A DNA stretch of 63,974 nt, counting the filler, from Folioceros fuciformis (taxonomy: Eukaryota): the NCBI GenBank assembly GCA_049999805.1. It is 6 parts of 4 records of this genome, joined end to end, with 100 filler letters (N's around TTAATTAATTAA, not from the genome) between each part and the next. Parts side by side here need not be neighbours in the genome. Positions count along the whole stretch, not along the records: positions 1 to 22,264 come from JBNGIO010006316.1; 5 more parts are not named here. One strand, given 5' to 3'. Below, piece by piece: positions 1 to 39,018 of the stretch. A program made the translations under genes and the position numbers. Every line of letters starts with the position of its first letter. Position 1 is the first letter of the stretch. The notes beneath the pieces were generated by a model, which saw only the letters and a program-made list of their open reading frames with translations, was not told where the DNA came from and made no database searches.

Positions 1-1437
1 ATGCTGTAGCATGCTCGAAGCTGATGTCTCCAGGTCAGCATTTTTGTGTTCTGCTACTCCATTCTGCTATGGGGTGTGTGCATTTGTGAGCTGTTTAACA
101 ATGCCATGTTGTGTGTAGTAAGCATTGAACTCCTCGGATGTATACTCGCTACCATTATCTGTGCGGAGTTGCTTCAGCTTGTATCCGGTTTGTAGCTCTG
201 CCTAAGCTTTGTACTCCAGGAAGCAGGAATAAGTTTCAGATTTGAGGCGGAGGAAGTAGACTACGCAAAATCTTGTATAGTCATCTATAAAAGTAAGGAA
301 ATATTCCTTCCCGCCAAGTGACTTGGGCATAGGCCCACATACATCGCTATGTACTAACTGTAGAACCTCTGTGGCCCTTGTGGAGGCATCTGTAGGAAAA
401 GGAGTCCTTTTATGCTTGCCGAGGACACATGATTTGCACACACCAACATTATCAAGCTTGTCTAAGGTGAGCCCGTCCACCATCTTGTGCTTGTACATGT
501 GTACCAGTTTTCGATAATGTGTATGGCCTAGGCAGAGATGCCATAAATATGTTTGAGATGGCTTAGCAAAGCTGGATGACGATTGAACAGCATGAGCTTG
601 TGCAGTCTGCAGATCTGGATGATACAAATCATCATTTTGCAAATGGCCAATTCCAAGGAGAGTCCCTTCGCTCGACTCTATCACACAATTGCCTCCTTCA
701 AAGCATATAAGGCAGCCGGACTGATCGATCTTTCTCACCGAGACTAAATTCTTCGTAAGTCTTGGAACATAAAGCACATCTGGAATTTCAACATGCTGAG
801 ATGGCATGAGATCCAGTCTTAAGGTCCCCTGACCTTCAATGGGGTGCTTGGTATCATCCCCTAAGCACACATACTCTGCTGGTGTGTTGCTCCTTAAGTT
901 AGGTCATATAGGTCAGGTGAGGAGTCATGTGTTGTGAGGCGCCACTATCTATATACCAGGCATGTGCTGGCTGATTGACATAGCATGATACCACGTTACA
1001 GGAGTGATGTAACCTGATGGCATCAGGAGACGATGTGGGAGGCTTCACTACTTGGGTAAGGAACACTCTCCTATACTTAGGGTCCTTGCATTTTTGTGTT
1101 CGTCCCTGGCCTTAAGCCATTCTTGTAGGCTTTGTTGACGTTGAGCCCTCCTTGCTAGTCTTTCTCTTTTCCTAAGTTCAGGCATATCTGTTGCTAACAG
1201 GCATGATTGAGTGCATTCTTGCAGGCGGAGTACCTGAGGGCATTTGCACACAAAGATGTCGGCGCAGCAGATTACGCCCGTCCAGAATATTTAGAAGAAG
1301 AGCGCTAGATTAGATAGAGGGTTGTAAAGCCAGGAGGCATAAGAAAAATTTGCGCAGAATTCCAGAAAGCCGGAATAATCGCATTGGCGTGCAAGTCAGG
1401 TTTGCGCACGTCACGGATTACCACAGCTCTGATACCA
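1..1437 (-). mobile_element. Ty1/Copia LTR retrotransposon internal region (protease, GAG-pre-integrase, integrase core); gag mostly deleted; runs off window start
   Basis: Minus-strand WYIDSGASQHMT protease motif (~920-960). ORF 202..870 has LWHLCLGH, CKSC, VHSDVCGP and YFLTFIDDYTRF, and integrase continues past an in-frame stop. Only ~470 bp separate the PBS from the protease, too short for a full gag. Confidence 0.93.
1426..1437 (-). promoter_or_regulatory. Primer-binding site (tRNA-iMet) of the Copia element
   Basis: Minus strand reads ...TCA|TGGTATCAGAGC, the canonical iMet PBS directly after an LTR-terminal CA. Confidence 0.9.
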
Positions 1438-1599
1438 TGATCAGGATTAGACATTAAAGGCGCGCCATTGTATTAGCATAAAGAAAAGGTGAATACAGCG
1501 CCACGGTCTCGTGACCTTGACGCGGTGACGGTTAGGGTTTCCTAATCGTCTAGCCCTAAGCCTGTCTCTCTAGGTTAGTAGACATAACCTACCCTAACA
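1438..1599 (-). repeat. Putative short 5' LTR of the Copia element
   Basis: Minus strand starts TGTTAGGG at 1599 and ends CA at the PBS. Sequence beyond 1600 switches to an unrelated plus-strand RT frame. The partner LTR is not in the window. Confidence 0.55.
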
Positions 1600-1618
1600 T
1601 GGCCCTGAGGCTGTTTTT

Positions 1619-2457
1619 TGGCAGGCAGCCATAGACTCAGAGTATAAGTCTCTTCTTCAGAACAAAACATGGAAGCTAGTAGATCTCCCAACTGGTTGAA
1701 AGCCTGCTCAGTGCAAGTGGGTCTTCAAGAAAAAGCTGAACACTGATGGATCTGTCGGAAGGTACAAAGCTCGTTTAGTGGCCAAGGGCTATAGTCAAAT
1801 CCCAGGTCTAGACTATAATGAAACATTCATTCCTGTTCTCAAGTCTACCTCTGTCCGCATTTTACAAGCCCTTGCAGTTCATTACAGTCTTCTTGTGCAC
1901 CAACTGGACATCAAAACAGCCTTTCTCAATGGCTTGCTGGAGGAAGACATATACATGACTCAGCCTAAGGGTTTCATCATCGACAAGGACAAAGTTTGCA
2001 AGCTTCTCAAAACTCTGTATGGGTTCAAGCAGGCTTCACGAGCCTGGTATGAAGTTTTTCATAAGCTTGGTTTCACTTGCCTAGATGCCGACACCAGTGC
2101 CTACATTCTTTGGGATGGAGAAGACTTTTTTATTTTTATTGTTTATGTCAATGACAACTTCCTCTTCAGTAACTTTGCCACTCTTATGGCTAGAATCAAG
2201 TCGATCCAACCCTCTAAGTTCAATATGACTGACCTTGGTGAACTTACCTTCTCCCTTGGTGTCCAGTTTCATCTCCATCCGATTGCAGGCACCATCAACA
2301 TCCACCAGGAACACTTTGTGCGACAGCTTCTCCAGCGTTTCAACATGCTTGATGCTAAACCAGTGGCAACGCTAATGGCTTTGGGTGAAAAGCTGTCTGT
2401 CGAACAGTGTCCTACCACTGATGAGGAGAAGAAGCTTATGGCCAACATTCCCTACCG
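1619..2457 (+). mobile_element. Ty1/Copia reverse transcriptase fragment (degenerate, truncated at both ends)
   Basis: WQAAIDSEYKSLLQNKTWKLVDLP, YKARLVAKGYSQ, HQLDIKTAFLNG, LYGFKQASRAWY and YVND (a YVDD variant). Homology breaks after NIPYR at ~2457. Confidence 0.92.
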
Positions 2458-2459
2458 AA

Positions 2460-3780
2460 ATGAAACTCAAGAGGGTGGATGCCTCAAGAAACTCGGATTG
2501 GTCCCAGACATGCGTTGCAATCCGCCCTTTCATGCACATATGCTGCAAAATTGTTGTTCAACCATGGACAAGCGTCCGGACGTAAGTGCTATAATAGGGG
2601 TAAGTGTATCTCAGTAATGGTGTGACACTCGGGTATCAAGCCCACAATGTGCAATTCTATACCCATAACATACACCGCCCGTGCCGGTGTCTTCTTAATT
2701 GTTTTACAATATTAAGCGAATCCTTGTTGGACAACCAAAGTCTAGGTCTGATAGAGGGGACACATGCTCCTTGTTCAAATTTGCTAGACCACTTTTGTAT
2801 GGACCCATGATCTTCCCAGCTTGAAATATAGACACCCATCTTGCACATGGAAGTGGAGTGTTGGAAGGTGCCAGCCGGCCAGCGCCTTCCAACGCCCCAC
2901 TTGCATGATGAAGCCACGTCTACAAATTCAGATGTGGGCAATGTTAGGATCATGTGCTACAACCCACTACTACTTGAACTTCGTACACAACAGTACATAA
3001 TGCGGACAAAATTCTGTCATTGTAACCACTCAAAGGTCTGCTGCATCTTGGACTCCAATGCATTGCTGCATCACAGGTTCACATTCCTCGGCGTTCGTGG
3101 AACAGGCGCTAGCATTTGGGGTGAAAGCATTTGGCGACTACTTCGGCCTCGTCCTCCTCCCCTTCCAACTATGAGAGGCGGTGGCAACGATCAGCAATGC
3201 AGCGATGCCCTGTAAGTGACAGACAAGCCAGTGATGCTTGTAGGTAGTGGTGCCCGCATACCTTCCATCTCTAAGGAAATGCAGTCAGCCCTATCAGCAT
3301 TTCCATGTGCTCCCGATGTGTGTCTGTTCAATCTGAGGCGCTTATGGTTCAATCTGCTAGTTGGGTTGTGCAAAATGAAAGTAGATGCATCGTCTTGTAC
3401 ATAGCCACCACAACGATTACAGAGTTGAAGAGCACAACAGGGTGGAAGAATGTCTACAGCAAAGCAGGTATAGTGGAAAGCAATGCTAACATCATTGCCC
3501 TCTACGTTGTGGAGCGGGCTCAACATTGTGGGTACGCTGTCGTTTTGGTGCCTGATCTCTAGTAATCTAAGGCAGGTGAAGGATCTGCAAGCAGTCGATT
3601 GGAAGTCTTGTGGCAATAGCTCGCTAATCATTGGCGAGCACAAAGCAACGTCAGAACGACATCATTTCCTCGGGTACGTATTAAGCAGTGCTGGCGTCAT
3701 GAATAACGCTGGCACCCGTACCTACTGTGGAGATTCGTGGTGTAGCAGAACGCCGTCATTTGTTGGGTTCCAAACCCATC
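2460..3780 (-). pseudogene. Possible decayed ORF of unknown function, divergent from the ParB-MTase ORF
   Basis: ORFs 3191..3643 and 2657..2953 share one minus-strand frame that stays mostly open with a few TGA/TAG stops. No recognisable domain. Confidence 0.3.
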
Positions 3781-4091
3781 AATCAACTATTCATGATTTT
3801 CTGTTCTTTTCAATAACCAGGTGTACAGTAAAATATATATCAATATATATATAGCCTGTAGACACTGCTATTTCGTTTTAGGGTTGCTGCACACGAAGCA
3901 CATTTGAGACGGGAGGCTAGAAGGCTGGAAATGTGCAAATAGAGGGCTTTAAGTAGTTGTTGTATACGAAACACCAGTGTTCGTATTCGGGCGCAACTAC
4001 GCACAGCTTGCAACGGAGCAGTGGAGTGTGGCAGCAATCGGAAGGGGATTGGAGGGGCAGCCTGAATCTATTCCCCTTGGCATTCAAGGAT

Positions 4092-7000
4092 ATGGTGCCC
4101 AGAAGTAGGGCAAAGGCGAGGGCAGGTGGGGAAGCTGGGGAATAGGAAGGGGAGCGCGCTCTTGTGAAGAAACAACATGTGGGGAAGAAGAAGCCTGCAC
4201 CTAAAGGTCACCAGCGAGATGTGGACACGGGCGGAAGCCAGCGAGGGGCACAATCCGGTGGAAGTCAGGCACGAGCAGTGGATGTTGTGCCCGTTGCTAT
4301 GGCATGTGTAGGAGGCGGAGCATCCCGCTTTCATAGCCTGCAATCTGGGAGGGTGAGCACTACAAGAGGTGGAGGGGAGAACATGGAAGGAATTGTGCCT
4401 TCCCAACGCCAATGCCAGCCACCTCTCGTGCAATCGCCCTTCAATTATGAGGAGACAATGAAGATTAAGCGATTGTTGGCGAAGGTTGAAGTGAAGGATG
4501 TCATAGAGAAGGATTGGATCCTCGTGCCAGAGGAGGAGCCGGAGGAGGATAGCGGGATTTGGACTCCTCTCTTCAAACTTTTCATAACGGGATACGGGGG
4601 TGCCTATCCGAATCATAGGAGAAGAGCAAGGTAGGCGATATGGGCAACATTATAAATGGGGAATACAAGAGTGGAGGCATTGCTTCTTTGCGTTACACAA
4701 CAACAAGAGTTTGACGAGATTTTGAACTGTATTCACGCTTACAGACTGTATCACCTATCTTTCAACGGCATGACAATCAAGAAGTGTGAGCCTCAGCAAC
4801 CTGTGCAAATGTTACTAGAATGTCAACAAGAACGACCAGTAAGAACTTCTTGCTTCATGCTCTACTGGCATTTGAGCACAATTGTTTCTTGACTGCTAAG
4901 TTGGTGGATGCTGTAGGAGGAGGCATAAGGGAAATCTTTTATACAATGCCTTTGTATGGAGATCACCCACTCAATGCAGGCTCATCGCCGAGCTATGGCA
5001 ATTCCTAGAACCCATCAGGGAGTAGAGGCTGAGGTGATGCCGGATGGTAGTGGCGAGGACAGTGAGCTTGGACCATCTAATGAGGAGGACGCGCCGATCC
5101 CTAATCTCTTATGGCAATCAGATTCGGAAGATGGGGGCACGGATGCAAACAGAGATGTGTCTAATAAGGAGATAATATTCCCGAACTACCTCGGGCATGG
5201 GGTGTCTCTAGAGGTCCCAACAATCCGATACGAGCCAGAGGCCACACAAGCGCATCGGCCGGCTAGTGCCCATGTTGATGGGCGGGCCATGGCCGCCGTA
5301 CCTTCACCAAACCCGGAATGGTTTATTAATTTCCGGGCTGAAGGTGAAGGTGGAGGGCGCCGGCCGGCCAGGGTTTAGGAGCAGTAGAGCAGCCTGAGCC
5401 ACTAGTATCACAAGAACAGGAGAGGGTAGGATCCCAACCTGAGAGAACAATGGACAGTGGTGGAAGCCCTGACGATGAACCACAGGCCCCGGAAGACCAT
5501 GGAAGAAAACGAAAAGGCAAGAAGGTGACCACAGATGTGGGTGGCAGCGGGTCAGGGAGTTTCACTTAATCATCCGGCCACAAAAGAAAGAGGAGAAGGG
5601 CCGCTGAAGTTGGCAATGGCGGAATAACCCATATTCCCACTGTGCATGTGGCAACTAATGAGGAGCGGTTGACGAAGGCCGCTATGGATGAAGACCCGTT
5701 AACCAAGATCTGGGAAGCCGCATACTGCAAGAAGGTAGTGAAGGAGACTATTATGGTGAAACTTGAGAACCTACAGCCAGCCTCATTCTTAACACTAGAT
5801 GCACAGATTCGGAAAGTGGATGAAGCGTGGACTAACTACTTGGCTAGGGTTATCTCAAAGGGGAGGATCGAGGAGGGGGTCCTCCCGCTTTGTGCATGAT
5901 AGATCCCGAGGAGTGCTCAGACATGGTGGAGATGGACTGGGACAAGTTCAGGGCGAAGAAGTACACGATGGGCGTTTTGGGTGGGAACCATACATATGCC
6001 GCGATGAAGCATCTTGCTCATATGTCACCCAGTAAACAATGCTTTCAGTACGTTGAAGCGCATGTGTAATGTGGCTTAACCTTATAGGAGATGAGGGTTC
6101 TGGCAACAGATCACAACATGATGTCGGACAAAAAGTGGAAAATGTCATTCATTGAGCAAGTTCGGTATCTTTGGGATGAACTTATTCCAGCAAAGCGGGA
6201 TGCTGTGCAAATGACAATGTCTTGGAAGTTCAACCTTTACAAGGTACTGGGCTTGATAGAGGATGGTGAGGCTCGGCAGGATGATGTTTACAAATAGAAC
6301 AAGATGGATAATCGGACACACATCCTTTGCATAGCAAAGCAGGAAGGCAACACCTGGGAGAACATTGACAAAATATTTAGCAGGTGGGATGCCAAAGAGT
6401 TGCTAGAGCAAAAGAAGCATACCATAGTTGGCCCTAGCAAGAAAGGGAAAGGAAAGCAAAAGCCTATGGATGACTCAAAGCTGGTTGACTCAGGATATGT
6501 AAAGCCCAAGGATATGCTAGCCAAGCCTTGGAAGTCTTTCCAAGGCATACCTCCAGGACAATGTGAAAAACATTTATTAATCACTGCAAAGGACAAGGAG
6601 TTGGCAGACATTATTGACTTGAAGGGTATGGACGACAACATCACGTTGCGGAAGAAATTTCACATCATTCAAGTTGCGATGGCGAAGCATCTAGGTCGCA
6701 AGTCATTTAAGGAAGTACGGGCAGAGTATTCAAAGCACTCAATGGACGACATGCTGGCGAGGTTTCAAACCCAATTCGTTGGAAAGGTGAGCACTTTATT
6801 TTTGGTGCCGTGACAGATTTCTTGGGTAGAGACAAGGCTGGGCTAAGGGCGCCAGCCAGCTGGCGCCCTTAGCTTGACCTTTAGAATTTCTAACCGGGCA
6901 ATGACGCAAGGGGTTTATATTCATGTTCTCGTTTGTTGATGATGTGCAGCAACGTAAAGATGTGGACAACTCGTCACGCTTGCCGGAAGCTTTCAACAAT

Positions 7001-8154
7001 TTATTTTCAAAGTTAACAATTGGAAGGGTTTGGAGGAAGAGCAATGGGTTCTCGCGGACAAGGACTTGTAGGAAGGGATGTTCACCTTCGCAATCCTCGA
7101 AGCTGATACTCAAGTATAGTATCACGTGGTGAGCAGGAGTGTTATGGAGATGAAAGGATTTCTCTGACCAAGGAAATACTCCCTCCTCGTTATGGATGTG
7201 CCAAGAGGCTATGACATGGGCCCTATGGACAAGCATTTCGAAGAGCCGATGATAAGCACAATGTTAGAAAGTTTTGTTGAGAAGACGACATGTAAAGAAT
7301 ATCGGTTGGTAGTTATGCATGGAGTGGATGACGCCCATACAGTAAGACATGCCCTTCAGAAATGGTGTCGGGTTGGAGGCGTGACATTGTTTGTTTGGGA
7401 CAAGGTGAATGTGTGCAATGACAAGGGCGGATATGAGACCGTGGAGTACATCACAATGGCTTGGGGTGCTAAGGAGGGCAGTGGAAAAGATAGAGTATTC
7501 ATGCTTCCCAACGTATCCCATCCACCATTCAACAGAGGGAGGTCTGTCATAGTCCATGACTCAGTTGTGAAGAAGCATATCTATTTGTCGCACGACAAAC
7601 GTGTGGTATGCCCGTATCAGCTCCTGCTGGGTCTTATGATGAAATTTGTGCTCGCTCTCTCCGAGGGAGGAGATTGGGTGGTGGATGCTTGCTCCAACAA
7701 CGGGACCACAACACTGGCAGGGCTATGGTCAGGGAGGAATTGCATCGCAGTTGAGGCGGACTTGCGATGCGCGGCTTACATACCTTAATGAATCAATGGC
7801 CACCAGGTTCTACCTGATGCTGAAGAGGAACTAATGTTCGATGTGCATCGTAGGGGCCCATCACAATTTTGGGCAAGGAAAATTTGTATCAACGATACGA
7901 ATAGCTTGAAAGTCCAAGTTGTGCCTTTCAATCGGCGGAGCGCCTAACACCCTATCAATACGGCTGGTGAAGGAGGTCAGATGACGAAGGAGGCGGTTTG
8001 GCTAGCACTGCAAGCACTCGATGAGGCAAAGTTAGATGGAGATTTTGTGGATAAGGAGTTGGAAGAGATTGACAACTTCGACACAGAAGAACAACAAAGG
8101 CTTGTAGGAGTTGTTGTAGTGTATGACTTTGTGTCTGCGAATGAGGGGTCTTAG
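4092..8154 (+). pseudogene. Degenerate ParB-like domain + beta-class amino (N6-adenine/N4-cytosine) DNA methyltransferase fusion, probably TE-borne
   Basis: ParB-like VLGGNHTYAA (GGNH at 5980-5991) and LATDHN. In the same frame, a C-terminal MTase has LLVMDVPRG (motif IV-like, [DS]PPY), VWDK, PYQLLLGL and GDWVVDACSNNGTTTLAGLWSGRNCIAVEAD (motif I-II). Multiple in-frame stops and at least two frameshifts. Confidence 0.75.
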
Positions 8155-8859
8155 ACTTTATGAGTAAAAGTGCTTTTGTGTCGATTGGGCCTAGCGTTGA
8201 TGCTACAATAAAACAAGTAATGAGTAAATAGCGCCGGTCAGGCGGACGCCTTGACCATCACTCGGTGTGTAGGCATCATGTCAAAGTGAAAATATGGGAA
8301 ATGGTTGGTGTGCACAAGGTGGTGGTTGTTTTCACATAAGTCTATATAGCTCATTCTAGAAGGGTTAAGAAATAGGACATCAAACTTCACTTCATGTACT
8401 AGTGTCCTTCATTATTCAGCCCCTTGCAACCTTGTCGTGTTTGTGGACACACCATCAAGCTACAATTGGGATGTGCTAAGGAGAAGAGTAAACAACATGA
8501 CATATGCCATGAACCCAAGTATACAAGGCATTGGTTCATTCCTCTCGTATTGGCCATTAGCAAAGCAAACTTGTACAAATACAGAGGATGTTCAAGACAT
8601 TTTTACTCCCATAATATGAGCTATAATAACACCCTAATGAATTCTATATATTCACATTTCACTATATCTAGTCTATACATCCATGGATAGATGGATGGAT
8701 ATCCACTCTTCATAGTCACCACATTCATATTATACTTTCACTTAGTACAACTGTTAAAAGTGCTTCCCTTATTAGGAGTATACAAAATAATATAACAGAC
8801 TCCCAATTACACTGTTGTGCCCATTAGGAGTAGAGAAAATAACATAAGAGACTCCCAAT

Positions 8860-10290
8860 TATACTGTTGTGCTTTCTCCAACTTTCTTATCAAGTCTCAA
8901 GGAAGTTCGACAATCAAGTTATACATGCTCTTGGGAACATCATAAGTTCCACCATCTTTGAGTGTGTCGTCAATGATTTGGCATGGAAGCAAGATTCCTT
9001 GCTAGTTGCCTTTGTGGGTGTTGGTCTTTTGGTCATAGAGGCCTTTGCCTCAGCTGCCTTTCTCAGTGGCTGGGTTCTCGGCTCCAATTTTGGCCTCTCG
9101 TTTTTTGTTGCAAGATTCTCCTCTTCTTGAAGGTTTTATCTCAAGCATTGAGGAGGGTGTTTTCTCTTTACAAGTATCTCTTTGGCAAGTGAGGGCCTCT
9201 TTACCTTTGGAGGCTCATGCGGCTCTACTTCCTTTCACCTTCTTTTCTAAGAAAGGGTTGAAGGGTCTTTAGGCCTCCCTCCTGGAAAAGCAATATGGCT
9301 AAGCACTAAGAGCTCTTCTTTTAGACTCATCTATCCCTAAGTCTTCTCAGGCTCGTATTTGCTCTCGGAGCGAGCTCTTGGCTCTTGGCTCTTGGCTCTT
9401 TGCTCTTGGCTCAAGCTTGCATCTAAGGATTTTGAATCACACCATGAACTTTCGCCACTATGATGAGATTTCGCTTAGGTTTGGCCCACCCCTTGGCTTT
9501 TTCTCTCTCTACATGCAATTGTGGGGTTGCCATTGTTAACATGGGGTCCCATCTAGCATCTTGTCTCGTCGGGAAGCATTGCATTACCACCCATGATGTA
9601 GTTCGGGTTGTCATGTTCTTAATAGTTATGGAATGTGAGTTTCTTCTGAATAAGGAGTGTCTATATACTTTGTGTAACTAGGTTTCACTTAGATACAAAC
9701 TTTTTTTTACTAGGGGTGAAGAGATTTGAGTTGTGGATGTGGTTATTACGGATCCCACTAGGAATTTGATTTGCGAGCACATCGTCATCAACCCTCGTGA
9801 ATGGGTGGTGGAGGGTTGTGCAAGCACCTAAGTCCTGAAGTATTCTCCAAGCAAGATGAGCTTATTTTCATCCCCTTTGTTCTTGAGACTCATGTGGCCA
9901 TGGGCAAGGACGTTTCAAAGTTCATCAAGGAGTGTGAAAAGATTTATTAGAGTAGTAGGAATGATGTTCTTCCTCTTTTGGCCTTCTTTCGACAACGCTT
10001 ATCCATTGCTTTGCAAAGAGCATTGGCTAATGCAGTTTTGAAAATAGCAGTAAGCACACTACCATTGGCTTCTTCGACACCGGTGGTAGGTAGGCCTTTT
10101 AATCTTCAGAGATCCATTGCTTTGTAAAGAGCATTGGCCAAGGTAGTTTTAGAACAGCAATAAGCACACTACCATTGGCTTCTTTGGCACAGTTGGTAGG
10201 TAGGCCTTTTATTATTTCATATCATGACATTTGAGGAGCAATATCATGACATTTTAGGAGCAATAGGTAGTTTTTGAGAATGATGCTCGA
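8860..10290 (+). mobile_element. CRE-like (RLE-type) non-LTR retrotransposon 3' remnant: RT thumb, CCHC finger, restriction-like endonuclease and downstream repeat
   Basis: AWKQDSLLVAFVGVGL (QASLP..GGLG-like), MRFRLGL...CNCG...GSHLASC...THDVVR (CCHC + RHD-like) and DVVITDP. Homologous to 22365-23300 and 58200-58550. Confidence 0.7.
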
Positions 10291-10740
10291 AAAGGCTAGT
10301 TCCTTGTTTGGCCTTTGGTCCCATTCGGGTTGTTCCTCCAATCTTTGGAGTAGATGAGGCTGTCTGTCCATCTCTTTTTCAATTATAGAAACCCTTTGCT
10401 CATTCTCACGTTGTGCCTCAAATCTTTGCAATCTTTGGAGTGAATGAGATTTTTCACCTTTTTTTTTTAATAAGAGAAACCCTTTTGGCCTTGCTCGGGT
10501 TGTTCCCCAATCTTTGCAGTAAATAAAACTTTCTATCTCTTTTTCAATAAAAATAATAATTTTATTATAAAAGCTTATCATAATCACATTATCAATTGAA
10601 TCAAAAAAGTTTAATATTTCGTATCATATAAATTTTTTTTCTATATATATAAATTATATGACAATATTCAATATTATGTTATTATGAGAGTAAGGGATAT
10701 GACTATTGACATGACCTAGGAGCGCAGCAGGGCCTTTGAG

Positions 10741-13700
10741 CTACAAAATACATGAAGGAACTATACATGTGATGAAGGCGAGTTCAAGCGGGACACCCAC
10801 AGGTATGGTTGCCATGGGCNNNNNNNNNNNNNNNNNNNNNNNNNNNNNNNNNNNNNNNNNNNNNNNNNNNNNNNNNNNNNNNNNNNNNNNNNNNNNNNNN
10901 NNNNNNNNNNNNNNNNNNNTATCCCTACGACCCTTGAGCCTAATGTCATTTGTCAACGAGAGCGAGACTCCTACGACCTTGTTGACAAGAGAAATGCCAT
11001 GCAAACTCCAGTCACTTCTGGAGCACTTGACATGCTCCCCTCCACCTGGCATTCGTGCAGTGTAACCACCAGTGTCACCCCCATCGAGCTTAAAAGCACC
11101 CGCTGTTTGCATGTTAACTTCAGACTTCCTTTCTGCACGTAAAGTGCTCTCCACGTTCAAAGGGCTACCACCACCGGAGCCCGTTAAAACCTGACCCATA
11201 ACAGACCATCGTCCGCCAGAAACAATTCGCGCCTCGCAGCTGCACCCAAGTCGAGCTTCCCCATTCGGTAGCAGCACTTGCATGTACGATTTAGTGTGGG
11301 CAACCTGGACGTGGTCAAGCCAAAGTCAGCCCAGTCGCTTGCAAACCCATCTCTGCAATTCACCAAATACACACTACAAAGAAGGACACGCACGAGGTGA
11401 GATCCGTCTGCAGCTTGGTCGGACACCCATACTTTCTCAACCTTCCCTTCCAATCCGGCATACGGAGTGAATGACTCCACAAGCCTGGTCAGCTCTCGAC
11501 TTCTTCTTTTCACTTCCGCAGTAGGCACACGTTTCATGCGCGCAGCTGGAGTACCTGTAGAAGAAACCCACGCACTAGATCCATTACGCCACAAGCCCAT
11601 TACTCTACTTCTGCATATCCTTGGTAACCTACCACATGCTTGGACTTGCCCCAAGCAGTTTTCACATTCACTAATGATACCTGGTCTAGGGTAGAACTGA
11701 GAGATATGTACTGAAGAGAATTTATAGTGCTCCACAAGATCCAGTGTTTGTTGGAAGTCATCAGCAGTTTCGCCTGCGAGCCATGGCCAGCGAGAAAAGG
11801 AACCCTTTAGATCACGTCAAGGCCGACCGGGCGACACGTACTCAAGTAGACACGAGCTTTTACAAATTCACGCCTCTGATAACAACCTGGGAATCCGCAG
11901 ATGATATCCGTTGCTATTTGTAAGCCTGGAACCAGGTGGGTCAATTTGTCAACCACATACTTAAAGTCCGCAACCGTGTACTCCCGATTCATTGCCTGAA
12001 TACTCAAGTGACAAGAGCAGCAAAAGGTCAGGCCATCACTGAAAGATTCCCCACACTTGGAGAACTAGCGACAGTTTCTTGCTGCTTACCTAGATCCCAG
12101 AAGCAAAACACAGCAGCGGACATGAAATGCAGATGATTCAATTTGTCAGACTTGGAGACTCTAGACTTCACATTCCAGCAGCACATTTGCATGGCGCCCT
12201 TGGGAAAGCAAACTCATAATGCTTCCAGCATGACACTAACTTACATGGAGCACAGCATCACTGCCAGACTGCACGGGGATGTGTAGGAACGAATAGACGT
12301 GCTGCCGGCGTAAAACATCTGCAATAGCTTCCAGGTGGTCCAGAATAAACGGAGGATTCGTCATTCCTATGCGCAGCATTGTGTGGCCTCCTTCTTCTAG
12401 CTCATCCGCAATGCCTCTCAGGAGAGAAGGCAAATCTGTGCCAATGTCACGCCCTGCACGAGAGTTGCGAGTTTGAGCGGGTACATGACTACTTGGGAGG
12501 GGACGAGCTCTCAGATAGGAGGCCTACGACCAACTATGTGAGAACAATTTCACTCTGCAAAACATCGCTGACCAGTCTTATCACCTCCACCTTATTGGGT
12601 TCTGTCCATCAGCAGAACTTTTGTCAAACGACAAAAACCAACACAAATAACGATGGAAATAAGCAACATTGACAAGAAGGTAATTTCTGACTTCACGGCA
12701 CATATAAGCTCACGAGCGGTCCACAGGGCTCTTGTTAAGACAAGAAACTTGTGGAAATCCTTAACAACATACCATATGCGCCAGTGTCCTCACTACTGAG
12801 CCAAATCTCTGTGACACCTTCAGCTTTGACGGCTTTCACCCTGTCAATCTGCAGAACAGGAGTGTTATTGGGACTACAGGATTGTCACCCCTTTGAGATT
12901 CTATACAGAAGGCAAAACCAGTAGAGGATGACACATTCAAGCAGTCTAGCATGTGTTGCACCGCATCAGGGGATGTTGTCTAAGCCTCAAAGAAGAAAGC
13001 AGTGGTCACTTGAGAAAAAAAACGGTCAATATCAATCAGGTACTTTACCAGAAAAAGGCGCTTGAAGGAGAGCAAAACTTACAATGGCGGACAAGGCGTA
13101 ACTGCCAAGATGCCCACGCGCATGTTTTGTTTTGCAGTACGTACAAGCTCCCAGACAGCCAACACTGATGGGGATAATCTCCACATGTTGGTTCTTCCTT
13201 ACCTGCACCATTGCTAGTATCAGCACCCCACAAACATGGCCTCATGGCAAGAAGTGAAAAGTGAGCCGCGGTGGGGAGCCAATGTGAAACAGCGATGCAG
13301 CTTCAGAGTGGGGTTCCCGGCACTAGCATAAAGCCAGCACATCAGAAGACAACATATTCAAGAGAAAACCTTGGGCAAGTCAAGTGAAGGAAGAGTCCCT
13401 CGCTTGAGAAACCGCACTTCATGACCTTTCAATGTCTCCTCCACCACCTCCACAACTCGATTGATTTGTTGCACTCCCACAATGCTCACACCCTTGAGCA
13501 CATCCATCCCACTGCTAGCTTGCGACACACATCCTGCAATAACTAGTGGCTTGGATGCATCCTTCCCCCGGCGTATAAGAGTCTCCATAGCTGACTGACT
13601 CGGAGCTTTCACAGTGCAACTGTTTTTCAAAGGCAGCTCGGTTCAAAGTGATGCTCCCCACACCGGACATCAACATTAAGCCCATCAGACCATGCACCAC

Positions 13701-14163
13701 TCACGTATTTATAATCCACAGATCTGCTGCATCAGCATCATCGGTCAGGTTGTAGCCGTAGTCAGAGAGCTGGCCGGCCATGTACTCGCTGTCGCTCTGC
13801 CCAAAACACGTCAGTGAAACACACGACAAGATGCAAGGAGAGGAGCAAATACAGAGCAGTAGATGGCAATTGAGCTGCACCTGATTATGCGCACACCCGA
13901 ACGTCTTCATGAAGATACTCTGAATGGACAAGAACCGTGTCAAGAGTCCTTGCAACACGCAACAGAGCCTCACACAGCACATCGTTGCTTTGTTATGGAT
14001 GAAAGGGCTGGCTTGCCTGAGTGCCGGGTGTGCCGGAAGGCCACATCTTGGGAGCGTGCCGTAGGACCGATACCCTGGCCTGCCCTACCTTGGACTTCGC
14101 CTGGTGTCTGGAATGCAAGCCCGCCGAGCTCGGGAATGGCACAAAGTCCTCGATGTCGGCCAT
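10741..14163 (-). CDS. CDKAL1: Threonylcarbamoyladenosine tRNA methylthiotransferase (CDKAL1/MtaB, radical SAM), multi-exon; 3' end spans a 100-N gap
   Basis: Exons give [56 protein letters not shown] (CxxxCxxC), [46 protein letters not shown] and a TRAM region. Stop position is uncertain because of the gap. Confidence 0.93.
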
Positions 14164-14267
14164 GGAGGAGTCCGCAGCCCACCGCTCCACCGACCGACCT
14201 AAAATGATGAAGCTCTTCGCACCACAATGCACTCGTATTTCTCAGAGCAGAATACTTTCGACAACAC

Positions 14268-16121
14268 ATGGACTGGTGGTGGAGGACCGTTGTTCCTGCC
14301 AGTGCGGGACTCGCCCTGTCGTTTGCTCTGTGGTATGTGGTCAAGGTCTGGATATGGACTCCCCGAGCGATCATCGAAAGCTGTCGCAAGCAGGGCATGT
14401 CGGCCCTACCCTTCGTGCCCTTCCTGGGCCAGCTTCCGGAGATCGTTGCAGTAGGTCACAAGCCAAAATTTAAGCAGTCTCTGGAGTACTTCTCTACGTC
14501 GCGTTGTTGTCGTGCTGTTGGTCTTGCCGTGGTGTACGGCTCTGACATGGTTTGCAATCCCGCAGCAAGGTGACGGGCTTGCTGGATTTCTCAACGCCAA
14601 CTGCAGCAGAGGGGGGCCAGGAGGGCGGGAGCCGGTACTGTTCTGCTTGGGCCGGAGCGTGAAGCTCGTGGTGCGGGAGCCCTCCCTGGTGCGCGACGTG
14701 CTGCAGCGCAAGGCGGACCTGTATGTGAAGCCATCCTTCATCCGGGCTCTTGGAGACTTACTGGGAGACGGGCTGCTCACGAGCAGCGGTCAGTCGTGGG
14801 CACGCCAGCGGGGGATCGTGAGCCCGGCGTTCTACAACAAGGAGCTCAAGGTGTGTTGCGGTGCGTGCGTCCCATGACACCCGTGACTCTCTGATGATGG
14901 GAGGCCGTGCTGAGCGGGTGATGGTGATGTGTCCTGATTTTGTTGCCGCAGCCGAAAGTAGATGTAGTGGCGGGATGCAGCGCCGCGGCCATGGAGCGGT
15001 GGGGCTCGGGGGAATTGGATGTTTTCCCCACCTTCCTGGAGCTGACATTTCGCATCCTGTTGAGGGCCACATTCCAGCTGGAAGAGAGGAAGATTCCGCC
15101 CGATGTCCCCGTCCTGGTACGAGGCTTTGATGCCTATATTCGCTGCACCCGAGAGAGGGTCTTGGGATACGCCGCTGCAGTTCCGGGATACCGGTGAGGT
15201 GTATTTCCCTGTCGCCGCCCCTCCTCCCTGCACCAGCAGCTGGACCAGGGAAGGAGAGAGTGGAGGAAAAACGCAAGCAAGCGACTAATTGGACGGTGGC
15301 GATGCAGGTACCTGCCGACCAACCTCAATCGGAAGCGGCTCCGGCACGCAGCCATGCTCCGGAGGCGGGTGGGCGAGATCGTGCAAGGGGTCTCATCAGG
15401 GGGGCTGCTGCTGGAGAGGATGCGGGAGCAGCACATGGGAGAGCAGGAGATAGTGGATAATTGCGTCACAATCCTCATGGCCGGACACGAAACCACCGCC
15501 AGCCTGCTCACCTGGAGCGTCTACCTGCTGGCTGGGGACCCGGAGTGGCAAGAGCGGGGTCGGTTGGAAGCGCTGGCAGCAGGGCTGGGGCCGGGCTGGG
15601 AGTTCGCCTCCTTCGACAAGGTGGCACAGCTGAAGAGCGTGGGCATGATAGTGTGGGAGTCGCTGCGCCTTTTCCCTCCCCAGCCTGTCGTCGGCAGGCG
15701 CATCTGCACCAGCAACAAGCTCGGGAAGTACGCTATACCGGCGGACATGGAGGTGCTCATTCCCGTGCAAGCCCTCCATCGGGACGAGGAACTGTGGGGC
15801 CCTGACAGCCAGGAGTTCAAGCCGCAGAGGTTCGCGAACGGGATCCACGGCGCATGCAAGGATCCCATGGCGTATCTCCCCTTCGGAGCGGGGCCCCGGA
15901 CATGCGTGGGCCAAACACTAGCTTTGCTGGAGGCCAAGGTCGTCTTGGCCGTGCTTCTGTGCAAGTACCGTTGGAAGCTCAGCCCTGGATACCTCCACAG
16001 CCCCGAGGTGACGCTCACGCTGCAGCCGAGGTATGGCATGCCTGTCATCTTGGAGCCGGTACACGCCATGCCTGCTACGCCTACAGTCTTGATGGCTTGC
16101 GACAAGCAAGCAAGCAATTAG
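14268..16121 (+). CDS. Cytochrome P450, CYP72 clan-like, about 4 exons
   Basis: N-terminal TM anchor, GDGLLTSSGQSWARQR, AGHETT (I-helix), ESLR (ExxR), PQRF and heme motif FGAGPRTCVG. Confidence 0.95.
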
Positions 16122-16271
16122 AAAATCAAATGTACGAAATTCAAGACAGATTTGTGAATGTGACGGATGAAAGAACGAATCAAGCTCTTTCACCCTTGCA
16201 CGCTCCTTACTACCGATCTGCATGAACCAGCTTTGACAATCCCTGTAATGTCGTAGCTCGATAGCTGGGCC

Positions 16272-17087
16272 CTAGACCTCCTTCCTCCTTCTACTGAGGC
16301 CATACTGGCGGCGGTGGAAGTTGCGGAACAAGATGAGCAGAGCCAGGTTGAAGAAGGCATTGAAGAGCCAGGCATACATGCCTTCGCAGCCGCCGGCAGC
16401 AGAGAAGTGCAGCCAAAGAAGTCCCACGGATGACACGAAGCTGAAGACGAATTGGACGATCTGGATGTCGGTGACCAGGCGCTTCCACGGCGGGCGGACG
16501 CCCATACTGCACAGCAGGTAGTACGAGTACATAACGACGTGCACCGCCGTATTGGTGAGCAGCGCAATCACCTGTAGCGACTGCGAATACTGCAGCCAGA
16601 AGTAGCACATGAAGATAACGGTGGAATGGTGGAAGACGTGCAGGAAGGTGAGCGGCTTGCCCCGCAACACCACAATGGCGGTGTCCAGCAATTCATAAAT
16701 CTTGCTCAGATAATAAACGTAAGACCAGAAAAAGAGGCTGCCTCTGGCCGGCGTCCCCCGCGGATAGCACAGCAGCCAGCTCCATCTCCCCTCCTCCTCC
16801 AGCAGCGCCACCACCGCAGCTCCGAGGCATCCCGCGAACATACCGAAGGACGCAACCAGGAGCACCACATTGTGCAGCACCGGAACGGGGCCTAACGCTA
16901 CCGGCCTCTTCACCACCAGTCGCAGCAAGGCAACTGCGAGCAGATACACCAGCACAGCCAGCAGCGGGAAGCGCGGCGACGAGCCGATCGGCTGGGTTCC
17001 CCATTCGAATGCGGAGATGGCGGGATGCCTCGCCGTCCAATGCGCCGCTCCAACCGCTGCCGCTTCAGCTGCTGCCTGTGCTGCCAT
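16272..17087 (-). CDS. GNS1/SUR4 (ELO) fatty-acid elongase, HOS3-like, intronless
   Basis: YYLSKIYELLDT, LTFLHVFHH (HxxHH box), NTAVHVVMYSYY and TDIQIVQF, with several hydrophobic helices. Confidence 0.95.
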   Translation of the reverse strand: MAAQAAAEAAAVGAAHWTARHPAISAFEWGTQPIGSSPRFPLLAVLVYLLAVALLRLVVKRPVALGPVPVLHNVVLLVASFGMFAGCLGAAVVALLEEEGRWSWLLCYPRGTPARGSLFFWSYVYYLSKIYELLDTAIVVLRGKPLTFLHVFHHSTVIFMCYFWLQYSQSLQVIALLTNTAVHVVMYSYYLLCSMGVRPPWKRLVTDIQIVQFVFSFVSSVGLLWLHFSAAGGCEGMYAWLFNAFFNLALLILFRNFHRRQYGLSRRRKEV

Positions 17088-17671
17088 CACCGACGTCTGC
17101 CTCTCCTGCCGGTGCCGCGCAAAAACATTACCGCCCTGTGGTACGTAGGTAAGCGTTTTTTATTCCATATCCCTCTCGGTCTCGCCGTGTTGCAAGTATT
17201 TTATGCAGGTTTGTTGGACAGTCTGGATAGATAAAACCTCGTACTTACCCGCACTTGGGTTTCATTTCACTAGATGGTTGTCTAGACTACTTGCTCTCGC
17301 CGCTCTCCACTGCTTTGATACAGGTGTTTGCTGGCTCCTCCTCCTGCGGCTCCTCTATGCTTCTCCTTCTTCCTTGTGCTGTCGTGTTCCCCTTCTTTCC
17401 TTTCACCCTGCGTGCTTCTTCCCTCCTTCTTTTCCTTTCTTCGCTTCCTGCCGTCTTTCCCTTCCTCTGCCTCTTCCCCGCGTGAGGAGAAACGCTGCGG
17501 CTGTATTTCCGCTGGATCCGTGCTCTCTCCAATTCTGTCCGGGTCTTGACGGGTGAAGGCGGCCAGCGCTGGCGGCTGCCATGAGGCGCGTAGGGAGGGT
17601 GCCTCAATTCTGGCGTGGCATGCGGCCTGGTGAATGAGGAGCATCTGGTTAGGGACAGGGAAACGAAAACG

Positions 17672-20600
17672 ATGAGTGCTGGAGCAGCGTCATGCTCCAC
17701 CTCGCAAGGGCTGGATCCGCCCTGGCTGCACGTGCGCCGCGAGCCCTTCACGTATGGCCTGCTCCCGCTGCCCAGCCTCATGCACGCGGAGGGCGTGCCC
17801 GCATTCAGGAACCTGCGAGCCAAGCTTCTTGAACACGCCGTCGCCTACACGCACTGGCCGCCGCTCAGCAATGCATCCATTCTGTCCCCTAATTTGAGAT
17901 CTTCTGCTTCTCCTGCCGCTGCTGCTGCCGCCGTTGCCCCTTCTCAAGCCGGCTCCGCCCATGCCCCTCCTCTCCGCAGAAGGGTCTCCACCTCTGGCAT
18001 TGCCGCTACATTAGGTCTTCCCCCGGTCCATGCCCACCTGGTGCTTGACACTTTGGCATCCGTCTTGCCAGATGATGGCGGCCCGGAACTGGATCCTCTG
18101 GCTCGGGCCGCTGCCACCGAAGTTGACTCCGTGGGCGCGGATGTCGATTACCTCCTCCTTTTCCTCTTCATTCAGGCTTACAGGAGACTGCCACCCCGCC
18201 CGCACCGGGACGCTTCCACCGTTGCCGATGTGTGGCCCTCCAATTCCGTGTTCGATGCACTGGTCCCCTCGCTTTCGCCCATCCAGGTACGTGTCTTGAC
18301 ACTCCCACCACCATCTTCATCTCTCATTTGGATTCTCACTAGGAGCTTCCGCTACATTCTATGTTGCAGACGAGACCAGGCCCGCACTCGCGGAGATGGA
18401 TGCCCGGTCAGGCCGAGGAAGAGGCACACCAGTTATCTTTTCTGCAAAAGCATCTGCCCTCTCTGCTTGCCTTGTTGGCGGAGGCCACGGACGAAGGCGA
18501 GGTTGATGCCAAGGTGTGATTTGCACTGCTCTCGCCTTTTGCATAGGTAGTCTTGGTTTTCGGCAACCCCATTGCCCACTAACTGCTGTACGATGCTGCA
18601 AACTAGGGGACCCTTGCAACCTTGCTAATGCTCTTGCACCTCAACCTCCACGTGCCTGCCTTTCCTATGTAGGTAATATCTGTGGAGAAATTTAAGCATC
18701 TCGGTTTCCTTCTTCAAGCTAGAGATGCTACTCTGGATGTCCTGCCTCTCAGTCAGGCTGCCCCATTCTTTGCAAACTCAGACCCAGATATGCCTGCAGC
18801 TCCCGTACCTCTTGCCCAAGCCTTGGAATGGATACTGCAACATATATGTTCTCCGTCACTCCATGTACGGGACAAATTGCTCACTAGAGAAAGAGAAAAT
18901 GGTCCTACAGATGCTGCTTCCACAGAAGCAGATGTTGCTATGGTGGATGCATGTTCTGTGTCCTCCACTTCCTCGCCTGCAACGCCTACTGGTGGTGCAA
19001 CCATGAACGGCCCGTTTCAGCTGCGCAAGGAACCCCGTCTTGGTGGATTCACTGTTGTAGAAGGTGTGACAAGGGCCTCTTTTCTGAGGGAGGAAGCCGA
19101 CTTCAGAGGACACGCTGCGATCGTAAGAGAAAAAAAAGACCTGCGTATTACCTACGTTTTGATGATGGTGGTTGTCTGGGAGGTCAGCAGAAGTTTCTTG
19201 AATGTTTGTTTCTTTTGCTGATGGTGGTTCTGATGTGTACATATGCTGGCATCACTCAGGTTTCCCACTGCCACGACTCTGTGGTCTATTTATTGGCACC
19301 CTTGAAATATGCATCCGTGTTCGGCTGCTCGGACTCCATTGTTGTGCTGGGCCCTATTGGAAAAGTGAGCGAAGCATCGACCTGTTATGATGCCATGCTG
19401 GTGCTTTGTGCCAGTTACTGAACGTGCTGGCTGCTGGCTGAGTGTGGGCAGGTGGTGAGAATTGAGCATTGTGAAAGGGTGCAGCTCATAGTGCCAAGTG
19501 CGCGTGTTTGCATCGCTAATTGTCGAGAATGCCTATTCTACCTGGGGGTTAATCAAAGGCCTTTGGTTATTGGTGACAACCATAATCTCCAGGTATTGAA
19601 AGCCTAAACTTGCAACAGGTACATAGTTAGGCGTGGAGGGGGAGGGTGTTAATTTGTNNNNNNNNNNNNNNNNNNNNNNNNNNNNNNNNNNNNNNNNNNN
19701 NNNNNNNNNNNNNNNNNNNNNNNNNNNNNNNNNNNNNNNNNNNNNNNNNNNNNNNNNGTTTTCTTCCCCAATGTCTGGCATAAGCTGTTTTTATTGGTGA
19801 AAGGCCAAAAAAAAAAAACCGCGTTGAAGTAGAGTGTTTGATTGAGTCTGCGTGCTGGCGTTTATGAGCCATATGAGTTTGTTGTTGCTGAATTTGTACG
19901 CTTGTCTTGTGCGTGTGCGTGTGTTTGGAAACAGGTGGCACCGTACAACACATTTTATCCCAGGTTAGAAGCTCATTTGGCACAAGTGGGTGTGGATCCC
20001 ACGGTTAACAGATGGGACAGATTGTTGACTCTGGGAGTAGTGGATCCCCATGACTCGGTTTCTCATCCTGCTGGGGTTGCGGATGCACAAGCGGAGGGCG
20101 CCACTCTCCTTCAACCAGAGAAATTTTTGAACTTCATGGTGCGGCACTTTGTGGTACTTTGATCTGAATTGATGAAGTGTGGCTTGGCGGGTGTAGGCTG
20201 ATATTACTGTTGCAGGCCTGCCATGTAGGTTGAGATGGATTGGGTTTGTTGTGCTGACAGGTTCCCAGATGGTGCGAAGTTGATCCTCAGCAACAACTTC
20301 TGACGAGAGCTAACCCTTTTCTTTTGCCCAAGCCTTACCTGCTCGCGCAGCAGTATAGGGTAAGCGAGGTGGCGTTGCGGATTGCTGATGCTGCAGGGTA
20401 TGACTTGTGGTTGTGAGTGGAATCTGACTGACTTAATGCGAACGGGCATTGCAGGCGAAGTCCGTGGAGAGTTTGAGGCAGGCCCTGAGGAGCGTACCGT
20501 TGGAAGACAGCAAGAAGCGGGACCTTTCCAACGTCCTGCACAGTTACTTCAGGGACTGGCTATATGGTAAGGCGAAAGCCATTGAATGGCGTACTGAGTG

Positions 20601-38677: not shown

Positions 38678-38862
38678 TTTTTGCCAAGTTATGCAAAAAT
38701 ACTAAAAGTCAGCACAGGCTTTTTGCCGAAATATGCAAGAATACTAAAAGTGAGACCCTGCATGTTCCTTTTGCCAAGTTATGCAAAAATACTAAAAGTC
38801 AGCACAAGCTTTTTGCCGAAATATGCAAGAATACTAAAAGTGAGACCCAACATGTTCCTTTG
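38678..38862. repeat. Tandem repeat, ~90-bp dimeric unit
   Basis: TTTTGCC(A/G)A..TATGCAA.AATACTAAAAGT occurs four times in an alternating pattern. Confidence 0.85.
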
Positions 38863-39018
38863 CCGATTCACGAAGTAAATTAGCACTATCCTCATGAATC
38901 GCATAGCATAGTAGAACACTTCCACTCCTTTTTAGGATCATACATTCCCAACAATGGAGTAACTCAACTTCGTTTTCAAGTATTCAACTATTCCTTAGCA
39001 CTCACTAGATCCAATTCT

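Follow-up and report, generated by a model that had tools for sequence, protein, structure and literature searches.

A dead copy of a ParB-methyltransferase fusion gene in Folioceros fuciformis points to an apparently undescribed eukaryotic family

What gene is preserved in a long, stop-ridden reading frame in repeat-rich nuclear DNA of the plant Folioceros fuciformis, and did that gene travel with a mobile element? The frame lies at 5884-8154 (+) of a 63,974-nucleotide (nt) stretch of joined pieces of assembly GCA_049999805.1 (hereafter the window; all coordinates count along its whole length). A preliminary description of this DNA had read the frame as the decayed fusion of a ParB/Srx-like domain with a bacterial-type, beta-class amino-methyltransferase, belonging to a mobile-element family. 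We conclude, with a probability of roughly 85%, that 5884-8154 is a dead copy of a eukaryotic ParB-methyltransferase fusion gene whose family is apparently undescribed. The locus itself is a functionless pseudogene, while the family is possibly worth study.

A decayed frame and its full-length relatives

Frame 1 runs through 5884-8154 with 14 internal stops (6067, 6085, 6295, 6811, 6844, 6937, 6940, 6955, 7069, 7117, 7165, 7786, 7789 and 7945), a terminal stop at 8152 and zero frameshifts, and a single frameshift at ~5843-5884 joins frame 2 (5570-5899) to it. In these respects the preliminary description was accurate: it had reported one frame from ~5900 to 8154 broken only by stops, with a ParB-like signature preceded across a frameshift, and all motifs that it quoted were found (VLGGNHTYAA, LATDHN, IRKVDEAWTNYL, DVPRG, VWDK, PYQ and GRNCIAVEAD). 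The decayed copy is collinear with full-length relatives, which carry a ParB-like domain, a middle region of ~230 amino acids (aa), a beta-class N6_N4 methyltransferase and an acidic tail. By tblastn, residues 155-777 of the relative P0010 cover 5884-7848 (E 1e-24), residues 9-399 of P0044 were placed on 6223-7518 in one frame (E 6e-35) and residues 12-317 of P0002 on 6943-7833 (E 4e-38); the ParB-like remnant at 5884-6297 was matched by P0005 (E 4e-18), P0054 (1e-17) and P0009 (1.5e-15). The interval 6813-7168 aligns in frame 1, with no frameshifts there.

Introns were considered as the source of the stops and rejected. The stops sit within conserved blocks that line up with relatives position by position, for instance 'V*CGLTL*EMR' against 'VYAGLTAKEAR' and 'FL*PRKYSL' against 'FLEPRAYTL', and are therefore nonsense mutations. 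Stops 6067 and 6085 both fall in the conserved 'VY.GLT..EA' block, with a further one at 6295, and the double stop at 7786/7789 occupies the site of 'L(E/K)LR' in relatives, shortly before the P0002 alignment ends at 7833. With 14 stops, at least one frameshift and family-invariant residues lost from the cofactor and catalytic-loop motifs, this copy is unable to make protein. In the methyltransferase trees its terminal branch measures 1.08-1.12 where the median is 0.25-0.29, a roughly fourfold length that fits the expectation for a pseudogene. The observed/expected CpG ratio is 0.61 for the element and 0.63 for the window average, i.e. there is no element-specific signal of methylation decay.

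Upstream of the frameshift, IRKVDEAWTNYL is read in frame 2 inside the open reading frame (ORF) 5570-5899 and is the counterpart of a 'REP..V..LM.SM' block in relatives; residues 141-223 of P0057 were placed on 5606-5842 at E 0.037, in weak support of this first ParB-like block. Where relatives have the consensus GGGHSREA the window copy has VLGGNHTYAA, and LATDHN stands at the site of H.HN. Still further upstream, the charged, low-complexity stretch noted previously was found at 4146-5378 in frame 0 and at 5348-5569 in frame 2, with no family match. The quasi-ORF 4146-5378 matched no Pfam family at E ≤ 1 and gave only weak tblastn matches, to the N-terminal parts of Chara relatives (E 0.07-5); it has a purine-rich skew, as has the remaining element, and is possibly an N-terminal extension of the same ancestral protein.

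The methyltransferase and ParB-like parts

On sequence grounds, the family methyltransferase is a beta-class PF01555 N6_N4 amino-methyltransferase. A phmmer search with the 206-aa ORF of the window against 1.84 billion representatives returned 38 matches at E ≤ 1e-3, 11 of them at ≤ 1e-10 and the best at 7e-26. Matches of this strength, like the tblastn coverage by P0010, lie far outside what chance would give. Among the 25 relatives scanned, 19 reached the PF01555 cut-off (10/10, 5/10 and 4/5 in three sets), and those that failed are truncated or degraded proteins. In the window copy DVPRG (7195-7209) is followed by VWDK, PYQLL (7612-7626), DACSNNGTT (7684-7710) and then GRNCIAVEAD. This is the permuted order with motif IV N-terminal to motif I, and it is the same in all relatives. 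Searched against the PDB, the family profile found the DpnA-type chains 5hek/5hfj first (3e-8), then M.RsrI, CcrM, M.MboIIA and one N4C methyltransferase. Moreover, hhalign aligned the family methyltransferase with that of a phage ParB_N-methyltransferase fusion over 210 columns (94% probability, E 1.1e-7) in the register DFPYG/DPPYN, QKP/MKP and SGSGT/LGSGS.

The window copy departs from this family at the very sites that matter for cofactor binding and catalysis. The consensus is PYQKP and SGSGT (D..SGSGT), whereas the window copy has PYQLL in the QKP loop and SNNGT in the S-adenosylmethionine loop; among rows covering each motif, LL in place of KP after PYQ and NN in motif I occur in the window copy only, and a few Chara, fern and liverwort copies alter one of the two residues KP. 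Most members have D[IFAP]PYG as motif IV; Ginkgo has DIPHG there, and the sea cucumbers have D[MK]P.[ED]W. In the subclade of the window copy the motif reads D[LV]PRG in 7/7 covering members (DVPRG in the window; DLPRG in P0001, P0002, P0003, P0015, P0044 and P0026), so that Arg stands where the pattern (D/N/S)PP(Y/F/W) has an aromatic residue. Asp is the first residue of motif IV in every family member covering it, which differs from the S-P-P-Y/F of N4-methylcytosine (4mC) writers of the DN4MT1/N4CMT type. The idea of a functional 'writer' is thus weakened for the window's subclade, in which all 7 covering members have Arg for the aromatic residue of motif IV and catalysis may be altered or lost.

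For the N-terminal domain, a model was built with AlphaFold on the relative P0010, using an 18-row alignment that included Chara and sea-cucumber members (pLDDT 77). For this model Foldseek placed Caulobacter ParB 7bm8 first (E 2.1e-4, prob 1.0); of the 30 matches listed, 28 are ParB, KorB, Noc, Spo0J, PadC or Srx. In a VIA search, which is independent of Foldseek, 8 chains reached Z ≥ 5, and every one has the ParB/Srx fold: PadC (8.4), KorB (7.6), Arabidopsis Srx (7.3), pNOB8 ParB-N (6.8), SerK (6.7), human Srx (6.4), Atu1540 (5.7) and SbnI (5.7); the next chain scored Z 3.9. The helical part after the ParB core shows a weak resemblance to winged-helix or helix-turn-helix (HTH) domains (VIA Z 3-4). 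The 'GG.H..(E/A)A' motif lies at what we take to be the position of ParB box II and of the GGCHR motif of Srx. With one profile, hhalign aligned the domain to a phage DUF6551 protein (itself PF20188 at 5e-99) at 78% probability and E 1.9e-5, and with a longer profile at 8%, the match spanning the GG.H..EA...C.VY.GLT block; one of eight N-domain sequences, that of Ginkgo, matches DUF6551 at E 0.0034. At the family level a ParB/Srx fold is supported by the predicted structure, and the window pieces align to it.

Several results weigh against reading the locus as such a fusion. The window ORF 7168-7788 scored 19.4 bits against PF01555 (E 0.0011), below the gathering cut-off of 26.7; the ORF is homologous, to E 7e-26, to relatives that pass this cut-off, and homology therefore stands despite its own sub-threshold score. 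The fold was modelled on the relative P0010, whose identity to the window translation is only 22-24%, and not on the window copy itself; an earlier model of 8 rows (pLDDT 66), now superseded, had no ParB match in Foldseek or VIA. By sequence, a PDB profile search found no ParB chain, 0/8 N-domain sequences matched ParB_N (PF02195) in Pfam, and the hhalign comparison with the phage fusion's ParB_N part reached only E 0.26. Finally, the box-II arginine of GxxRxxA is Tyr in the window copy (GGNHTYAA) and is replaced by Val, Phe, Tyr or Leu in Ginkgo and sea cucumbers, while most Chara copies and two JGI relatives keep it (GGGHSREA). Due to the absence of this Arg from many members, nucleotide binding is uncertain. 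Other sequence searches were of little help: PHROGs gave one weak match to a 'ParB-like partition protein' for one of eight sequences (E 0.18); tblastn of the Ginkgo N-domain against phages gave only matches at E ≥ 1, one of them a full DUF6551 protein and another a Vibrio phage YC match without a Pfam family; and a word-index protein search with the window ORF, whose index is too coarse at 30-40% identity, gave no match of longer or similar length.

Taken over both domains, the reading as a decayed ParB/Srx-like and beta-class fusion with motif IV ahead of motif I is borne out by the alignments of relatives, the PDB profile, hhalign and the fold model. The more specific expectations fared unevenly. 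A match to the N6_N4_Mtase profile holds for 19/25 relatives and, by homology to 38 proteins, extends to the window ORF, which does not reach the PF01555 cut-off itself; ParB_N was matched by 0/8 N-domain sequences in Pfam, and it was the fold model of a relative that matched ParB/Srx.

Copies, lineages and possible origins

Organism names were attached to 10 of the 30 matches looked up: Chara braunii (4), Riccia sorocarpa (2), Adiantum nelumboides (3) and Ginkgo biloba (1). The remaining 20 are Logan, ENA or JGI records without an organism name. A search with the N-domain profile found 18 longer proteins, from Chara (10), JGI (2), Logan (2), Holothuria leucospilota (3) and Apostichopus japonicus (1, a RefSeq model with isoforms), and Chara braunii has 13 distinct family proteins in all. 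Two of these, P0005 (1825 aa) and P0045 (1609 aa), contain two full ParB-methyltransferase units head to tail each, which suggests tandem copies merged by annotation. The Adiantum nelumboides protein P0060 (MCO5614432.1, 720 aa) combines an N-terminal part and a truncated ParB block with an intact-looking methyltransferase (PF01555, 47.6 bits); its N-terminal part is presumably like the C-terminal end of a Ty3/Gypsy integrase, a likeness that is unconfirmed, with no Pfam integrase match at E ≤ 0.01.

Two trees of the methyltransferase domain were made, one of 34 rows from which domains of <150 profile positions and four near-identical cluster members had been dropped, and one of 45 rows with a threshold of 120 positions. 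The window copy groups with the DLPRG clade (SH-aLRT support 95 and 91 in the two trees). Chara and two close JGI sequences form one clade (support 100), and Ginkgo, Riccia, Adiantum and the DLPRG clade of the window copy form a second (support 92). A long branch (1.1-1.2, support 100) separates the two prokaryote-type outgroups from the family, which forms a eukaryote-only clade. The sea-cucumber branch is very long (~2), and its placement is therefore unsafe. Full-text literature searches found no description of the family; the supplementary lists of PMC4738411 and 10.1101/2025.10.10.680097 are possibly relevant and lay outside these searches.

Copy number was approached with contigs of two DNA runs of the same organism (X1 and X2; 0.90 and 0.84 of sampled words), placed on window positions 1-20000 at ≥80% identity. 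Summed contig depth is not a copy number, and this caveat of the method also counts against our reading. Over the single-copy genes at 10.7-20 kb the summed depth is ~11 (X1) and 5-11 (X2); it is 24-26 (X1) and 14-18 (X2) in bins 4003-5336 and 48-84 (X1) and 22-59 (X2) in bins 5337-8671, with 48 in bin 8005-8671 (X1), so that depth over 4003-8671 is 2-8 times the single-copy level. Diverged contigs lie over 4317-5461 (~85% identity) and 5409-6011 (~83%), and variants from extra contigs were seen at 6696-6730 and 8358 (2-3 contigs, with 3 at 8358). What can safely be said is that this genome holds a few diverged paralogous copies, which reach past the stop codon to at least ~8358. With diverged contigs from this organism lying over it, the locus cannot be single-copy, and the preliminary description had indeed reckoned with relatives elsewhere in the genome; because paralogous contigs still cover the 3′ flank, the repeated unit extends beyond the coding part. 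The repeat-rich setting that it had described was likewise recovered, with Copia fragments upstream of the locus, on mixed strands and unrelated to the unit, and a high-copy repeat downstream. The GC content of the element (0.47-0.52) is close to that of the Copia fragment (0.45); it is 0.60-0.63 in the P450, ELO and mTERF genes and 0.52 in the PPR gene.

We take ~4146-8154 (+) to be a dead copy of an intronless gene of ~1,300 codons. Proteins of its family have a low-complexity N-terminus, a predicted ParB/Srx fold with a helical, HTH-like part, the ~230-aa middle, the PF01555 methyltransferase and an acidic tail. The ParB-like module of intact relatives is likely to bind or clamp DNA, possibly under nucleotide control, and would deliver the methyltransferase, which in turn would methylate an exocyclic amino group; N6-adenine is the likelier target for D[IF]PYG members. 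Because phage and prophage fusions of ParB with a methyltransferase are built in the same way, the family was likely acquired long ago from a phage-like source.

How copies came to be multiplied is less clear. The duplications in this genome, the repeat-rich DNA and the composition like that of a transposable element (TE) make spread by, or as cargo of, a mobile element plausible, at somewhat below even odds. On this tentative account, for which we would give the same odds, an unrecognised element (a large DNA transposon or similar) encodes or carries the family, and the window holds one decayed insertion. It agrees with the several diverged copies in one genome and with the 13 distinct proteins of Chara braunii, which have terminal branches of 0.03-0.17 and many degraded motifs (FPCGY, FLYGF, SDFGTG); with a patchy distribution over streptophytes and holothurians; and with an intronless coding region of TE-like GC, flanked by Copia fragments and a high-copy repeat. 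Giant fungal Starship transposons carry DUF3723 as an accessory gene family, and in a language-model look-up the best matches of the N-domain were fungal DUF3723 clusters (0.95, 176 shared features), which is a lead only, as DUF3723 is absent from the Pfam matches of N-domain sequences at E ≤ 10. Membership of a mobile-element family was nevertheless not borne out: around the unit we found no termini, target-site duplications, transposase or recombinase. Weighing against this part of the reading, no terminal inverted, terminal direct or long terminal repeats were found, and no terminal repeat pair brackets 2600-9300 (a weak test on one decayed copy); no transposase, integrase or reverse transcriptase domain occurs in the unit or in 25 family proteins; tblastn of P0010 found no second copy within the window; and the contig data did not pin down the boundaries of the repeated unit. 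The Apostichopus RefSeq model with isoforms also looks like an ordinary gene.

We rate about equally, and with the same reserve, the possibility that the locus is a pseudogene of a vertically inherited, multi-copy streptophyte host gene family without an element of its own. The named land-plant sequences stand together and Chara apart (SH-aLRT 92 and 100); this grouping of named relatives by host lineage is as compatible with a multi-copy host family passed on vertically as with a TE, although the pattern rests on few names, 20/30 looked-up proteins having no organism. Chara, Riccia, Adiantum and Ginkgo have flagellated sperm, and no angiosperm or conifer is among the 10 named of the 30 looked-up matches, with NCBI and UniRef included in the libraries. 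That all four named streptophyte hosts share this trait recalls DN4MT1 of Marchantia, sperm-specific by the available text of its report (10.1101/2021.02.12.428880). Conservation of D[LV]PRG at 30-40% identity in 7/7 covering members suggests selection on some members. Against descent within a host family, the GC and repeat-rich setting are unlike those of three neighbouring host genes, the holothurian members are hard to explain by descent alone, and truncated or degraded copies are numerous within single genomes. A relic of an integrated virus (giant-virus or phage-like), or a lone horizontal transfer from bacteria, is very unlikely. Phages and prophages do typically have the ParB-methyltransferase architecture, tblastn matches the methyltransferase domain to 301 phage records (best E 3e-9), and giant-virus contigs carry distant PF01555 methyltransferases; but phage and viral methyltransferases are no more than 22-36% identical, and in the methyltransferase domain alone, three IMG/VR scans and one metagenome scan gave distant methyltransferases only, with no ParB-fused form, and the family forms a eukaryote-only clade apart from the prokaryote-type outgroups. 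The neighbours of the locus are ordinary plant genes and retrotransposon fragments, and the window has no viral hallmark genes.

The layout of the dead copy and of its surroundings is collected in Table 1.

Table 1. Positions of the parts of the decayed copy and of other features in the window
Feature	Position	Strand	Remarks
Upstream degenerate frame	4146-5378	+	Frame 0; pieces 4146-4634, 4656-4892, 4929-5378; charged, low-complexity residues
Frame-2 segment	5348-5899	+	One stop 5567-5569; basic KRKRRR stretch; start of ParB-like domain (IRKVDEAWTNYL)
Predicted ParB/Srx-fold domain remnant	5884-6297	+	VLGGNHTYAA 5974-6003, LATDHN 6100-6117
Conserved middle region	6298-7165	+	'PW..FQGI...', 'AMAKHLG..SFKEV...'; 8 in-frame stops 6811-7165
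Beta-class N6_N4 amino-methyltransferase domain (by sequence)	7168-7788	+	206 uninterrupted codons
C-terminal tail	7789-8154	+	Conserved 'LP(D/T)EEQE', stop 7945, acidic stretch, terminal stop 8152
3′ flank, still covered by paralogous contigs	8155-8860		Contig depth, variant at 8358, loose ends 8863
Copia GAG-pre-integrase and integrase	202-903	-	Copia fragment
Copia RVT_2	1700-2617	+	Copia fragment
P450 gene	15198-16121		Ordinary plant gene
ELO gene	16272-17159	-	Ordinary plant gene
mTERF gene	31326-32360		Ordinary plant gene
PPR-E-DYW ORF, 1227 aa	47056-50739	+	DYW deaminase 7.6e-36

The middle region was assigned to no Pfam or Atlas family. The window is plant nuclear DNA. The high-copy repeat is unrelated to the unit and starts at ~8863-8900, where summed depth rises to 830-1270 against ~11 for single-copy sequence; it occurs three times in the window (8672-10672, 22365-23815 and 58216-58566), with 261-nt tandem units at 23061-23582. 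Contigs of a further run, X5, which is guessed to be RNA, skip five CT..AC stretches in the gene at 10920-12454 (-) and five GT..AG stretches in that at 17204-19932 (+), and both neighbours therefore appear spliced and expressed. No X5 contig lies over 2669-9338, though the neighbours are covered, which is not evidence on expression. The ORF 17594-18550 has no Pfam family. Within the PPR-DYW ORF, the DNA at 47898-49609 has a periodic repeat of 297-306 nt, by arithmetic three PPR motifs per unit. A 650-aa ORF at 52135-54087 (+) has only weak matches to STAND/AAA NTPases (nSTAND3, E 2e-4) and is flanked by 300-nt repeats (51702, 56357 and 57430) and inverted repeats (55951-56253 and 57122-57423). 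The AT-rich region 38679-41017 contains short tandem duplications with units of 90 nt (38679-38858), 81 nt (39874-40035) and 68 nt (40881-41017), and 279-nt repeats (39019-39662). Outside this genome, the 31-kb metagenome contig L002 holds at ~6481-15809 a prokaryote-type mobile cassette with a serine recombinase, a Rep-like protein (Viral_Rep and helicase), a 238-aa stand-alone PF01555 methyltransferase, DUF488, a DuOB protein and an Eco57I-type methylase.

Known systems and meaning of the family

Fusions of ParB with a methyltransferase, which the preliminary description had held to be common in phage DNA, do occur there: the Streptococcus phage Javan93 protein QBX22681.1 (418 aa) carries ParB_N (24 bits) and PF01555 (97.6 bits) and adjoins terminase. 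According to the available text of a survey of the ParB-CTPase fold, its N6N4-methyltransferase fusions are typical of phages, and sulfiredoxin (Srx) is the commonest eukaryotic representative of the ParB/Srx fold (10.1101/2025.10.10.680097). The phage fusions have the same order as the present family, ParB at the N-terminus and beta-class PF01555 at the C-terminus. The present family differs from them in being eukaryotic, nuclear and multi-copy, in its ~230-aa middle, long low-complexity N-terminus and acidic tail, in a ParB part too diverged for detection by sequence, in the absence of a terminase neighbour, and in a motif IV that varies (Y, H, R, S, or K/Q/E then W). Among ParB-CTPase/sulfiredoxin systems (ParB, KorB, Noc, PadC, SerK, Srx), to whose fold the N-domain model corresponds, the family stands apart in having no ParA partner and no recognised C-terminal dimerisation domain, and the box-II Arg is often lost.

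Closer to the family in its eukaryotic setting is bdelloid N4CMT, likewise a permuted PF01555 amino-methyltransferase of bacterial or phage ancestry in a eukaryotic genome, which Rodriguez et al. 2022 present, in the text available, as an N6_N4 methyltransferase without eukaryotic homologues (PMC8885841). By that description it differs in a chromodomain fusion instead of ParB, a single allelic pair, five conserved introns and proven 4mC writing (PMC8885841). Marchantia MpDN4MT1a/b is also a beta-class amino-methyltransferase in a land plant with motile sperm, and the liverwort Riccia carries the present family; as described, however, MpDN4MT1 has a TSPPY motif and 4mC activity, where members of the present family carry D instead (D[IFVL]P[YHR]G), and the available text mentions no ParB domain in it (10.1101/2021.02.12.428880). 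No Marchantia protein is among the named family matches. Iyer et al. 2016 describe comparable eukaryotic acquisitions from phage ParB-associated methyltransferase loci, such as haptophyte clade 6 from ParB-terminase loci and a chlorophyte-type Dam with a ParB-type HTH (PMC4738411). Their clades differ in host (haptophytes, chlorophytes, chytrids) and in having FHA or HTH fusions, and the chlorophyte one belongs to an M.EcoKI/TaqI-like group; land plants show few N6A methyltransferases there, and, supplements aside, the available text describes no streptophyte or holothurian ParB-fold fusion (PMC4738411).

The family thus appears to be an undescribed eukaryotic variant of the known phage ParB-methyltransferase architecture. 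A far-reaching extension, which we consider unlikely, is that it constitutes a functional nuclear system of N6-methyladenine (6mA) or 4mC amino-methylation derived from phage ParB-methyltransferase packaging loci, in which a nucleotide-gated ParB clamp would spread the methyltransferase along chromatin. Such a system would have been kept in streptophytes with flagellated sperm (Chara, liverworts, ferns, Ginkgo and the plant of the window) and in sea cucumbers, where it might serve to reprogramme sperm chromatin, like DN4MT1, or allow a giant mobile element to mark itself.

Bacterial-type amino-methyltransferases that have become established in eukaryotes are, to our knowledge, few (bdelloid N4CMT and Marchantia DN4MT1 are examples), and claims of eukaryotic 6mA or 4mC often come without a candidate enzyme. 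The dead locus described here leads to an entire family built like the phage ParB-methyltransferase fusions, multi-copy in Chara and present in a liverwort, a fern, Ginkgo and sea cucumbers. Should the family prove to be cargo of a mobile element, it would add a new case of a TE with a DNA-modification enzyme of its own. Any active members would be candidate writers of DNA 6mA or 4mC in the lineages concerned; with them, a ParB-fold module would for the first time be seen coupled to chromatin modification in a eukaryote.

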